From positions 39,618,001 to 39,682,000 of the forward strand of contig OZ024743.1 of assembly GCA_964016885.1 (NCBI GenBank): 64,000 bases of DNA, written 5' to 3'. The translations under genes and the position numbers were made by a program. This DNA is from Eledone cirrhosa (taxonomy: Eukaryota). The notes under the pieces are model-generated. The model saw nothing but the letters and a program-made list of their open reading frames with translations, ran no database searches and had not been told where the DNA came from. This document shows, piece by piece, positions 49,338 through 56,299 of the stretch. How positions within the stretch are numbered: position 1 is the stretch's first letter; every line of letters begins with the position of its first letter.

Positions 49338-50893
49338 CAGAAAAAATGAAACGAAATTTCATTTCCCACTCTTAGTACGGCTGTTATTTAAATATAAGTA
49401 TGTACACTTACATACATATATGTAAACAGACGTACAGTAGTATGTATATATATATATATATATACATACATACACACATATATATATATGTACGTATGGA
49501 TTCACCGAACATATATTATAATGCTCGGTGTGTTTGTAAATAAACATCCTGTATTCAGCCGTAATGTCTAGCAACCATCGTTGCTCGTTTGTTCAACACT
49601 GAGAAAGTAACGCTGTACTAGTTTCAAGCTTATTAGCTATCGTCAGAAAAGTATACCTTCCTGCCAGATTGTTGAACGTATATACTTACCGTATGCATAT
49701 TAACGGCTGAGTAGCCCATTTTGCATATCGAGTGGGTTAATCGGCCGGGTGCACCGAAAACGATAAAAGGAAAAAAATGAAACAAAATTTCATTTCCCAC
49801 TCATAGTACGGCTGTTACTTAAATATAAGTATGTACACGTACATACATATATGTATACATACGTACAGGACGTACAGCAGTATGTATATATATATATATA
49901 TATATATATATATATACATGCACACATATATATATATATGTACGTATGGATTCACCGAACATTTATTATAATGCTCGGTGTGTTTGTAAACAAACATCCC
50001 GTATTAAGCCGTAGTGTCCAGCAACCATCGTTTCTCGTTTGATCAATACTGACAAAGGAACGCTGTACTAGTTTCAAGCTTATTAGCTATTGTCAGCAAC
50101 GTATACCTTCCTGCCAGATTGTTGAACGTATATACTTACCTTATGCATATTAACGGCTGAGTAGCCCAATTTGCATATCGAGTGTGTTACTCGCTGGGTG
50201 CACCGAACACGATAAACGGAAAAAATGAAAGGAAATTTCATTTCACACTTTTAGTACGGCTGTTACTTAAATATAAGTATGGACACATACATACATATAT
50301 GTATACAGACGTACAGTAGTATGTATATATATATATATACACACATGCACACATATATATATATGTACGTATGGATTCACCGAACATTTATTATGATGCT
50401 AGGTGTGTTTGTAAACAAGCATCCCGTATTAAGCCGTAGTGTCTAGCAACCATCTTTGCTCGTTTGTTCAACATTGACAAAGGAACGCTGTACTAGTTTC
50501 AAGCTTATTAGCTATTGTCAGCAACGTATACCTTCCTGCCAGATTGTTGAACGTATATACTTAACTTATGCATATTAACGGCAGAGTAGCCCAATTTGCC
50601 TATCGAGTGGGTTAATCGGTCGGGTGCACCGAAAACGATAAAAGGAAAAAATGAAACGAAATTTCATTTCCCACTCATAGTACGGCTGTTACTTAAATAT
50701 AAGTATGTACACGTACATACATATATGTATACAGACGTACAGTAGTATGTATATATATATATACATACATGCACACATATATATATGTACGTATGGATTC
50801 ACCGAACATTTATTATAATGCTCGGTGTGTTTGTAAACAAACATCCCGTATTAAGCCGTAGTGTCTAGCAACCATCGTTGCTCGTTTGTTCAC
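49338..50893 (-). mobile_element. Tandem array (~3.6 units of ~425-450 bp) of a non-coding HHR repeat (retrozyme-like), 12-bp TSD TATATAAATAAA
   Basis: Unit starts at ~49341, 49772, 50219, 50645; HHRs at 49610-49652, 50060-50102, 50485-50527; TSD at 49326-49337 and 50894-50905; absent from the mirror arm at ~44835-44850. Confidence 0.88.
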
Positions 50894-52549
50894 TATATAA
50901 ATAAATAGCAAATAATCCTGAAATCTGGAGTCTTCGCATTAATATTATAAATTAAATATTTTCAAAGTCTAACCGTTTAACGTTCACCCCCCACCCCCAC
51001 ACACACACGCTTTATCTTTCCCTCCTTATAAATATTTTTCCAGTGGCTATCACTTGCTGTTATGAGTTATGAGACGTTTCCCTAGATATATTGTAGTATC
51101 ATACAATTTACAATTTTAGAACACTTTAAGTATGCAACATTTTTTCTTATATACTCACTAATGAATATATTACATTTTCGCACTATTACACAGATATTTA
51201 TAAGTAAAACTTTCTATCGGGTAATCACTACCCCGATTAAATCTTAACCATTTAACATCTCAGGGTATGTCATGTATCATTATATTTTGTCTAAAGAGGA
51301 CGTACTGTTGTACATCCGAAATATGTAAAATAAAATGTAATTGATCAAAAGAATATCTATTTTATTAATACTTATATTTTAATATATATATATATATATA
51401 TATATATATATATAAATGATATATATATATATATATATATATATATATATATATATATATATATATATATATATATATATATATATAAATTATATATATA
51501 TATATATATATATATATATATTTAAATTAATAAAAAACAATGAATAAAATCAAAGAACAAGTTCCTTATATTAAAAAATTCATCATTTTACGATCTTTTC
51601 TAGGATATATATGTGTGTTGGTATGTATATCATATAGATCTAAGTAAAAATAGTTTACAAACTATCAGAGGAGATATACATACCTTCACATATTAATGCT
51701 GTCTTCAGAAACAATGATATTTGTTTATTGAAAAAACCCAATACAGATATAATATAATAGGTCTGTTTGGGAACAGGTTTTGAATTGACCAATAGAAAAG
51801 TAGTAAGAGGTCAAGTTGATAGAATAGTAGTAGTAGAAATTTAATTTAGGGTAGAGGAATGCAGACTTAGGTTTTGAATGGAAAGAATACTATGAAGGAA
51901 AAGAATACTTTGGGGATGAAAAGAGGTCAAGTTAGTGAAGGGTACACGAACATTTGATGCTATTAAAGAATAATGTTAATGTTAAAACCGAAGAAGAATA
52001 ACATTTTAAGGTAAAGGTGTTAGTGAGAAATACCATTTTTATTTAAAACACAAGGAATGTAGATCTATAACAAGAAATTAAATTAATTGATAGGTATACT
52101 TATAGGGATAAATTTATATTAATTCATAGGGATGTGATAAATAAGAATTAGATGTTATTAAAGAAAGTTGTAAAAACGAAGGAAAATAAAATCTTGGGAT
52201 AAATGTAGTAGTGAGAAATACCAATCTTATATAGACTACAAGGAATATAGCTTCATAACAGGAAATTAAATTAATTTATATGTATATTTTTAGGTATTAA
52301 TTTTAGGAAAAGAGAGCTGTAAGAGGAAAATAAAATTATGAAGTTCTCTGTAGTAAAGTACTAATTATAGGTTAACTAATTAAAAAAAACTAATTATAAT
52401 AATATGTAAAATATAAGTGTAAGGTGTATATTAATTAGGTTTATAATATTTGACAGTTCTAATAATTCTATGATTGCAAGATATAATTAATTCCTGTCGC
52501 TTATTTAATAGGATATCCTTAGATTTCAATATTTCAAATTTTAAATAGA

Positions 52550-53190
52550 TCAACTGTCAAATTTTCCTACTCCACTACCAAAAATATACAACAAAATATG
52601 AGTGCGTACAATGCATATAAATGTAAAAAAATACACGAATATACCAGCAACTCATTAAAACCAACCATAATACTAAAATAAACCGCAACAAACCATCATC
52701 TCCTTCACATATTGAGTAAATTCCACACCAAATTTGACTAACTCCCCTGATATAATATTCGCGAATGGTTGTAACTGTAGAAACAAAAGAAATTGCCCAT
52801 TAAAGGGAAATTATCTTATAAATAACATAGTATATAAATGTAAAATTAGCACTAAGGACTCAACTTATTCATATATAGGAGCTACGTCTAACCAATTTAT
52901 AGTAAGTTTTAATAACCACAAACATATTTTTTTTTAAATGCCGCATTAGCTAATACAACATCATTGGCTGAAACAATTAATAATTATTGAAAAAAGAATA
53001 TCAATTACAACCAGACCTGGTGTGTGCTCAAATGGGCCACCCCTTATCAAAATAACAGATATGAGTGTAGATTATTCTCCCAGGAACGTTTTGAAATAAT
53101 GAAATCTAAGGATATCCTATTAAATAAGCGACAAGAATTAATTATATCTTGCAATCATAGAATTAGAAGAACTTTCAAATATTATAAACC
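52550..53190 (+). pseudogene. Decayed PLE linker + GIY-YIG fragment
   Basis: GCNCRNKRNCPLKGNYLINNIVYKCKI...YSYIGATS, then LLNKRQEL..SCNHR downstream. Confidence 0.82.
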
Positions 53191-54067: not shown

Positions 54068-54470
54068 TCCTGTATCAGTGTTGAACAAAAAGGTGACGTG
54101 GTTGCCTTAACACCGTATGGCATAAATTCAGGCTGTTCAATTTGTTTACAAACGAACAAAGCGGGCGCTATAATAAGCGTCCGCTAAACTGATACGTACA
54201 TATATGTATGTGTACCTGTATGTATATATATATATATACATGCTACTGTACGTATGTATATATATGTATGTACGTATACATACATACTTACATTTAAGTA
54301 AGTGCCGTACTAAGAGTGAGAAATGAAATTTCGTTTTCATTTTATTACAACTTATCGTTCTCGTTACGCCTGGCCGAACTCACTCGATATGCAAATTAGG
54401 CTGCTCAGCCGTTAATTTTCATAAGGAAAGTATATACTTTCGAACGTTCAACCATCTGGCAGAAAGGTAT

Positions 54471-54513
54471 ACGGTGCTGATGATAGCTAACAAGCTTGAA
54501 ACTAGTACATCGT
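54471..54513 (+). ncRNA. Minimal type I hammerhead, intact (next tandem unit)
   Basis: Identical to 54025-54067, 446 bp downstream. Confidence 0.9.
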
Positions 54514-56299
54514 TCCTGTGTCAGTGTTGAGCAAAAAGGTGACGTGGTTGCCTTAACACCGTACGGCATAAATTCAGGGTGTTCAGTTTGTTTACAAACG
54601 AACAAAGCAGGCGCTATAATAAGCGTCCGCTAAACTGATACGTACATATATGTATGTGTACCTGTATGTATGTATATATATATATATATATATATATATA
54701 TATATATATATATATATATATATATATATATATGCATGCTACTGTACGTCTGTATACATATATGCATGTACGTATACATACAAACTTACATTTAAGTAAG
54801 TGCCGTACTAAGAGTGAGAAATGAAATTTTGTTTTCATTATTACAACATATAAGTATACCTATCAATTAATTTAATTTCTTGTTATAGATCTAAATTCCT
54901 TGTGTTTTAAATAAGATTGGTATTTCTCACTAACACCTTTACCCTAAAATGTTATTCTTCTTCGGCTTTAATATTAACATTATTCTTTAATAGCATCAAA
55001 TTTTCGTGTACCCTTCACCAACTTGACCTCTTTTTATCCCCAAAGTATCCTTTTCATTCAAAGTATTCTTTCCATTCAAAACTTAAGTCTGCATTCCTCT
55101 ACCCCTAAATTAAATTTCTACTACCACTATTCTATCAACTTGACCACTTACTACTTTTCTATTGGTCAATTCAAAACCTGCTCCCAAACAGACCTATTAT
55201 ATTAAATCTTTGTTGGTTTTTTCAATAAACAAATATCATTGTTTCTGAAGACAGCATATATATTTGAAGATATGTATATTTCCTCTGATAGTTTGTAAAC
55301 TATTTTCACATAGATCTATATGATATACATACCAACACACATATATATCCTAGAAACGATCGTAAAATTTTGAATTTTTTAATATAAGGAACTTGTTCTT
55401 TGTTTTTATTCATTGTTTTTATTAATTTATTTTGACTCTGTTTTCCTGGGATTTTCAACGAACATTTTTGAATGCATCTTCTCTTTTCATGATATTTGGA
55501 TTACATTAAGTTCTTCATACGGATTGGACACTACCGTATATTTTGGTAGATATTACTACACACATCTTTATATATATATATATATATATATATGTGTGTG
55601 TGTGTGTGTGTGTGTGTGTGTGTGTGTGTGTGTGTGTGTGTGTGTGTATGTTTGTGCTGGTGTTAATATATATGTATATATACATACATACATCTACCTA
55701 TAAAATCACATAGCTGCACTTTAATGGTATACGGTGGCACTATTCAAAATATATACTTGTCTAATTCTTATATAGAAGGTACATATTCAACATGCAGTTA
55801 CTTTTCTGCACTACCTACGTAAACTTCACCATGGATTGATAATTGTTGCACTCGTTCAAGCAAGCTCTGAAGTTAGAACTTATGGAGACCGTGTAATTTA
55901 TTTTTTAAATGATAAATTCTGTTTTCGTGCGCTGCATCTATTCTGGCACGTTGCTTTCTCTAGTATCTCGTGACACTCACTTGACCTATTTCATCTATTC
56001 AGAACTGAACTTATTGATTTTCTAGGCAGTGTCTCTGAAACAATATGCAAGACACTTATTCACGTTGTTTTCCGTCTTTCTCTGTGATCCCGTCTTCTAA
56101 CTATAATGTACGCTATACAATCTTGCGTGGGAAATAACATTTTCCACACCCCTTCATTATACTATGAGTTCACTCGTTCTATCCGCAAGAAAAACCTATC
56201 CAACGAGGATGAATGTCGAATGGGTTTTAGAATACGTAACGTATACAATGCACTATCCATCTTCCTCCATGCCGATAATATCAATTACAAACCGTAACA

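Follow-up and report, generated by a model that had tools for sequence, protein, structure and literature searches.

Which enzyme moves the retrozymes of animals, and on what template, is the question raised by a 64,000-nucleotide (nt) stretch of the Eledone cirrhosa genome (GenBank assembly GCA_964016885.1, contig OZ024743.1, positions 39,618,001 to 39,682,000; this whole stretch is the window in what follows), in which a short repeat with a hammerhead ribozyme motif lies twice within Penelope-like elements (PLEs). An earlier note on this DNA had proposed that the repeat is a mobile, retrozyme-like family copied by the reverse transcriptase (RT) of PLEs. Our analyses bear out the core of that proposal: very probably the repeat is a high-copy, non-coding, tandem retrozyme without long terminal repeats (LTRs; a non-LTR retrozyme), copied into (TA)n by the RT-endonuclease of a PLE, probably one of the Hydra clade. 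Its insertion marks match the internal priming of PLEs in families 67-80% alike.

Insertion ends were called for 145 clusters from 148 loci plus the window (the 60 best matches, 58 clusters from the first 100 core matches on contig C1, and the first 30 tail matches), and 9 clusters that ran off the fetched stretch were dropped, leaving 136. Most 3' ends (169/208) fell at one of two fixed positions inside the unit, some 60 nt from each other (66 at site 1 and 103 at site 2), with 80 of the 103 site-2 ends called at one identical base; the remaining 39 comprised 23 that were unplaceable within a microsatellite and 16 elsewhere. Ends at the two sites adjoined (TA)n in 157 of 169 cases. A head-to-head arrangement was present in 71 of the 136 insertions, and none was purely tail-to-tail. 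In 48 of these 71, one arm ended at site 1 and the opposite arm at site 2; no head-to-head insertion had the same site at both ends, and the other 23 had one end uncalled or elsewhere. Single-orientation copies (n = 62) ended at site 2 in 39 cases and at site 1 in 11. Arm junctions overlapped by 1-5 bases in 24 of 41 instances, and a sister family 67% alike used the identical pair of 3' sites. With a tail at one end, an inverted truncated arm, and two internal starts, this insertion pattern is that of PLEs, and the strict pairing of site 1 with site 2 suggests how the inverted arms and tails of PLEs themselves originate.

The 5' ends, in contrast to these fixed 3' ends, were spread evenly over the unit. 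Ends within the microsatellite could not be placed; among the 149 that could, none lay within the first 5 nt past the predicted hammerhead cut (+1 to +5), and the cut was therefore rejected as the source of 5' ends. Since the region from +1 to +25 held 13 of 149 ends against 11.4 expected, the 5' end of the first window array does lie about 20 nt past a cut, at +21, as the earlier note had observed, and is there by chance. The hammerhead-selected sample is biased against ends near the cut; in the tail-selected sample, 1 of 28 5' ends lay at +1 to +10. Evenly spread 5' ends, together with arms that cross many hammerhead sites, rule out that a cut linear monomer is what is usually copied.

The insertions in the window are listed in Table 1. 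Both the 3.6-unit array and the inverted-plus-tandem cluster were recovered at the positions previously described, and the two arms of the cluster overlap by 3 bases at their head-to-head junction. One unit position, site 2, forms an end of all three window insertions, as had been noticed. Target duplications measured 12 bp at insertions 1 and 2 and 15 bp at another locus (L044), and were mostly unreadable within (TA)n. In the mirror arm of each host PLE the target is present once, with one difference from the 12-bp repeat. These empty sites indicate that insertions 1 and 2 arrived after their hosts, and both lie downstream of the PLE open reading frame (ORF) remnants, hence within 3' untranslated regions (UTRs), again as first read. 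A significant tie to PLE neighbors was not supported: a PLE ORF lay within about 6 kb of 14 of 58 element loci and of 4 of 40 control stretches (P = 0.11, not significant), and the usual target is (TA)n. The two UTR insertions thus likely reflect AT-rich targets in a PLE-rich stretch.

PLEs of the window and of the literature end in comparable ways. Each of the three window PLE insertions examined has a tail at one end only, and the window Hydra-clade PLEs end like the retrozyme. Craig et al. (2021, PMC8557442) described Hydra-clade PLEs that insert in (TA)n with a tail at one end and an inverted 5'-truncated copy. The retrozyme shares with those elements the (TA)n target, partial tandems, the inverted truncated arm, the one-end tail, and hammerheads with palindromic stem III. 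The retrozyme differs in having no ORF, in a tail of about 60-70 nt versus about 100-140 nt in the window Hydra families, and in the position of site 1, which is about 230 nt past the cut versus about 50 nt in those families. For the Poseidon element PAc, Frangieh et al. (2024, PMC11167929) reported that the PLE tail, called unique to PLEs, coincides with the interval bounded by two internal positions of RT initiation in vitro; both strands were cut and extended, and the protein was predicted to dimerize. PAc and the retrozyme share two tail-bounding internal starts and an AT-rich target; in vitro, PAc showed no strand difference in start site, whereas here the two ends differ in 48 of 48 fully called head-to-head insertions. 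Non-autonomous Chlamys PLEs such as MRC1 (PMC8557442) are likewise non-coding, multicopy, and head-to-tail, and are attributed to PLE machinery, but their 3' ends are similar to those of autonomous families and their clade mostly lacks hammerheads, whereas the retrozyme carries one per unit and no parent was found.

Mobilization of retrozymes by PLEs was proposed in 2020 (PMC7229834), and Li, Clavereau, and Pollet (2026, bioRxiv 10.64898/2026.07.22.740005) treat retrozymes as non-autonomous PLE derivatives on the basis of co-occurrence and homology of pLTRs in 35 species, among which a text search of the preprint finds no mollusc. Our element agrees with theirs in partner class and in definition (no fewer than two units in succession that carry a type I hammerhead); they report pLTR homology, of which none was found here, and we report PLE insertion marks. 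Retrozyme tails or inverted arms are not mentioned in the main text of that preprint, nor does the main text of PMC7229834 contain the terms "inverted," "tail," "microsatellite," or "truncat" that would point to the two-site head-to-head pattern. In the papers compared, mobilization by PLEs was only hypothesized or inferred from homology; the evidence for it here is at the level of insertions. We found no literature description of this family, which may exist in Repbase or Dfam under another name, and neither "ribozyme" nor "retrozyme" occurs in the passages searched of an octopus repeat annotation (PMC13282606).

By its sequence definition the unit belongs to the non-LTR retrozymes. It is short, tandem, dispersed, below 50% in GC, and without LTRs, and, as the earlier note held, it is non-coding, the longest ATG-initiated ORF in a doubled unit being 64 codons. 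Two or more units in a row that each bear one type I hammerhead occur at 54031/54477 and in many genomic arrays; array 1, whose three copies are damaged, falls outside this definition. Metazoan non-LTR retrozymes have been described with units of 150-450 bp, thousands of copies, and long target duplications (PMC7229834). The present element resembles them in its non-coding tandem units, low GC, one type I hammerhead per unit, high copy number, long target duplications, and a self-paired predicted circle, and differs in units of 420-520 nt and, in its two window subfamilies (A, array 1; B, the cluster), an internal TA-rich microsatellite hairpin; circles and cleavage are predictions in the present case.

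Across the 3.0-Gb genome, exact matches of one 31-nt core numbered 11,245 and relaxed core matches 25,012 (reversed control, 0), and the tail motif matched 13,345 times. Two sister groups, 67-75% alike to the window unit, gave 11,793 and 565 exact hammerhead matches (controls, 5 and 13). Subfamilies A and B agree at 294 of 369 columns of their majority sequences (about 80%), and the units of array 1 mutually differ by 6.4-7.6%; Tandem Repeats Finder did not report the 425- to 450-nt period in the window. Sister loci (L180, L239-L263, L264-L268, and L273-L283) are 67% alike to the unit, with units of 466-470 nt, a fully paired stem II, a cut triplet of GUC or GUU, and the same two 3' sites, and one sister variant is 100% identical at five loci, which indicates recent activity. 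The older family with 565 matches (L193:1-330 and L287-L295) differs at both central bases of the stem III palindrome. Roughly 37,000 exact-pattern hammerheads would escape Rfam thresholds, and their share of the genome may be near 0.5%.

The hammerhead had been called minimal, a label that its helices contradict: stem I of 6 bp, stem II of 4 bp, and stem III of 1-2 bp with a palindromic loop correspond to the canonical metazoan type I form and depart from the minimal PLE form (helix II of 7-8 bp, helix I of 4-5 bp, and little or no helix III) as separated by Cervera and de la Pena (2014). One intact motif per unit had also been claimed, and this stands for only two of the six hammerheads in insertions 1 and 2 (54031 and 54477), which retain the CUGAUGA core and 6-bp stem I; the other four are damaged, including all three of array 1, two of which read CUGACAA and have lost G8. 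A U.U mismatch lies at the base of stem II and is also present in axolotl HHR_Amex2, whose cleavage improves in dimeric form (PMC7229834). The Rfam search suggested by the earlier note gave no match in the window at gathering score, and only the intact cores drew Hammerhead_HH9 matches, both of them below threshold (18.3 and 17.5 bits versus a cut-off of 52). Matches resembling miRNAs in Rfam stem from the TA microsatellite. Across 11 recurrent hammerhead variants, nonetheless, the catalytic core was invariant, the cut triplet was GUA, GUC, or GUU, 7 of 16 stem pairs had changed on both sides, and 96.6% of cells were paired, compared with 32-52% in slid alignments. Such compensatory changes across families 67-75% alike indicate that the hammerhead is under selection. 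Self-complementarity of stem III, also part of the earlier reading, is retained in the older family through the swap of both central bases, which fits an intermolecular (dimeric) stem III; the 6-bp intermolecular helix is predicted at -4.8 kcal/mol. In the consensus fold of the whole unit, 24 of 65 pairs have changed on both sides, and the cut is surrounded by a long stem while a further helix joins the tail to the region past the cut. The fold of the unit has z = -6.9, a value that takes in the microsatellite hairpin. Self-cleavage is predicted from sequence and fold.

These marks probably arose as a PLE protein cut both strands of an AT-rich target and primed reverse transcription internally, at site 2 on one target end and at site 1 on the other, the two complementary DNAs being joined head-to-head at microhomologies of 1-5 bases; alternatively, one arm alone would yield a plain 5'-truncated copy. 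The template would be a circle copied round or an uncut multimer, as opposed to a linear monomer produced by hammerhead cleavage; the hammerhead may dimerize by pairing of its self-complementary stem III and so release monomers for circularization, and long arrays were probably reshaped further after insertion. A fuller version, in which the clan is still active and circular RNA undergoes rolling-circle reverse transcription by a dimeric Hydra-type PLE, each subunit priming one strand at its own fixed site to give head-to-head concatemers of up to 20 identical units, we hold only tentatively and think somewhat likelier to fail than to stand. If true, it would constitute direct genomic evidence for retrotransposition of circular RNA by PLEs, and one paired priming event would explain both the PLE tail and the inverted arms.

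Subfamily B speaks for repeated copying of one template. Its units differ by 0.8% within an insertion (1.5% across arms) versus 4.7% between insertions, 11 private alleles are common to all units of an insertion (7 of them across both arms; 0.10 in shuffles), units of one insertion often share microsatellite length, and one insertion holds 18 identical full units over both arms. In locus L280 (G000:C1:19315053-19316767), four units alternate A-B-A-B at 15 columns, the two types being 2.5% apart, as either a two-unit circle or a later duplication would produce. A 478-nt contig that spans a unit junction and looks circle-like is apparently microsatellite-bounded on both sides, and no inference was drawn from it. 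Between a circle copied repeatedly and an uncut multimer, we put the template at about even odds.

Several results weigh against the combination of PLE partner, active hammerhead, and single circular template. No autonomous PLE homologous to the unit was found by BLAST of the window or among the hammerhead-bearing families in the 1.3 Mb fetched, so the partner is proposed from insertion marks. The 18-unit variant is 100% identical at four other loci, and a homogeneous parent array would therefore explain it as well as a circle would. Mosaic shared variants in arrays of 31 and 15 units (G000:C1:5738326-5752444 and G000:C1:14044535-14051131, each with an inverted short arm) suggest expansion after insertion, as by unequal exchange. 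Conservation within subfamilies is barely better in the core than in the rest of the unit (0.977 versus 0.956 and 0.960 versus 0.954), and the covariation counts, being drawn from related sequences, reflect few independent changes. Of nine retrozyme dimers predicted in Xenopus, only one showed cleavage when assayed in vitro (bioRxiv 10.64898/2026.07.22.740005). Subfamily A, finally, lacks a one-template signal: none of its 35 multi-unit insertions has a private allele common to all units, and its units differ by 3.9% within versus 5.0% between insertions.

This last result, units about as different within an insertion as between insertions, is also what would be seen if the element were a non-autonomous PLE derivative copied from uncut linear multimers by internal priming, its hammerhead serving as a trimmer or passenger with no role in the template. 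That explanation departs from the one we prefer in just two respects, which template is copied and what the ribozyme does, and we regard it as a serious possibility that falls a little short of an even chance. It accommodates 5' ends that ignore the hammerhead cut and the alternation of two unit types 2.5% apart in L280, and it has precedents in vitro, where PLE insertion used unprocessed RNA and was not hindered by hammerhead mutations (PMC11167929), which also counts against the explanation we prefer, and in the head-to-tail multicopy insertions of non-autonomous Chlamys PLEs (PMC8557442). It does not readily explain why the hammerhead was kept with compensatory changes in families 67-75% alike, why subfamily B has private alleles common to all units and both arms, or why the sequences flanking the cut are predicted to pair as a long stem that would hold the ends of a monomer together; furthermore, circles are the form in which coral, mussel, and axolotl retrozymes accumulate (PMC7229834).

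Far less probable, and in our view very unlikely, is a short interspersed nuclear element (SINE)-like element moved by a long interspersed nuclear element (LINE), with arrays formed by later duplication at the DNA level. A LINE-like RT ORF is present in the window (a 426-codon frame at 8519-9799, minus strand, which we take to be RTE-like from its motifs), later reshuffling is seen in long arrays, and L1-type twin priming also yields inverted 5' parts. The position of the second primer site is variable in twin priming, however, whereas both arms begin at fixed sites here, and site-2 arms stop near site 1 in only 4 of 34 cases (P = 0.17), on which ground twin priming on the same molecule was rejected. 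In addition, ARAGORN detected no tRNA-like head (it finds intact tRNAs only, and degenerate heads can escape it), the 3' tail is neither A-rich nor a repeat, the 3' ends lie inside a circularly permuted unit, and neighboring PLEs show the same end pattern. A simple satellite or DNA-level repeat whose hammerhead-like motif is accidental, a reading that the lack of an Rfam match at gathering score, the fold of the isolated 49-nt motif (no better than shuffles, z about -0.9), and arrays of up to 31 units might favor, has a next to negligible probability and is refuted by fixed 3' and random 5' ends together with stems that covary around an invariant core with cut triplets GUA, GUC, and GUU, and it is also at odds with dispersed short insertions that have target duplications and empty sites.

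The head-to-head Hydra-type PLE at 22792-31625 is a candidate source of the enzyme. Its intact ORF bears RWK, DKT, and CxCx5C, the motifs that define the Hydra clade, and since Pfam, PDB, and protein searches returned no name for the ORF, its assignment to Hydra rests on these motifs. Together with a 450- to 470-nt RNA and young copies 100% identical at unlinked loci, this intact ORF makes for a small testable system. Searches for a partner element gave the following. Only short AT-rich motifs are common to the unit and host PLE family 1. A scan for palindromic-stem hammerheads in 285 fetched sequences found PLE families, none with homology to the unit, and candidates with the same stem III and a different stem II (263 matches, 30 loci) were rejected as partners, being sister retrozymes and mutated copies and including no PLE.

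Table 1. Features of the window, in positions of the 64,000-nt stretch
Feature	Position	Strand	Description
Insertion 1, subfamily A	49338..50893	minus	3.6 tandem units (425- and 450-nt periods) with 3 hammerhead sites
Insertion 1, ends			3' end at site 2 (49338); 5'-truncated at +21 past cut position (50893)
Insertion 1, left target duplication	49326..49337		12 bp; microhomology overlap with final 5 bases of site 2
Insertion 1, right target duplication	50894..50905		12 bp
Hammerhead core, array 1	50491..50521	minus	G8 to A, predicted inactive
Hammerhead core, array 1	50066..50096	minus	G8 to A, predicted inactive
Hammerhead core, array 1	49616..49646	minus	core intact, 5' arm of stem I broken
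Insertion 2, inverted arm, subfamily B	53535..53998	minus	outer end falls short of site 1 by a few bases
Insertion 2, tandem arm	53996..54846	plus	1.9 units, period 446; outer end at site 2
Insertion 2, left target duplication	53523..53534		12 bp
Insertion 2, right target duplication	54847..54858		12 bp
Hammerhead core, insertion 2 inverted arm	53827..53857	minus	one broken stem I pair
Hammerhead core, type I, intact	54031..54061	plus	predicted cut after 54061
Hammerhead core, type I, intact	54477..54507	plus	predicted cut after 54507
Internal tail copy	54283..54356	plus	from the site 1 hairpin to site 2; recurrent 3' ends about 60 nt apart
Insertion 3	60796..61067		short head-to-head copy in (TA)n, without hammerhead; left end site 2, right end site 1
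Host PLE 1, mirror arm	44245..46744	minus	tail and own hammerhead near 44400; empty site 44836-44847
Host PLE 1, main arm	46750..51380	plus	broken ORF to about 48137; 3' UTR split by insertion 1
Host PLE 2, mirror arm	51523..52538	minus	without tail; empty site 52095-52106
Host PLE 2, main arm	52755..55568	plus	endonuclease-end remnant to 53188; insertion 2 in 3' UTR; tail to (TA)n
Young head-to-head Hydra-type PLE	22792-31625		arms 99% alike; tail of about 140 nt at one end
Young PLE, intact 784-codon frame	23453-25807	minus
Young PLE, intact 784-codon frame	28469-30823	plus

Some further observations concern the PLEs. Near 26130-26020 (minus strand), the young PLE at 22792-31625 contains a hammerhead-like motif whose stem II is very long. 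Other PLE families account for further PLE-type hammerheads at 36524, 37759, 42170, 57819, and 61290, in which stem I has 8 bp and stem III is palindromic. At one locus (L077:3983-2897), a piece of PLE ORF is joined directly, in the same orientation, to the 5' end of an element copy, a single case that either a template switch or insertion into the ORF would explain. Several PLE tails, at fetched loci and at window positions 44340-44300, share the motif pair ACTC...GAGTG; GAGTG occurs in the tail of subfamilies A and B and is absent from the sister-family tails, which could be chance. Copies of a short interspersed repeat, which may resemble an octopus SINE, lie at 1-775, 1741-1913, 14123-14199, and 63613-63820.

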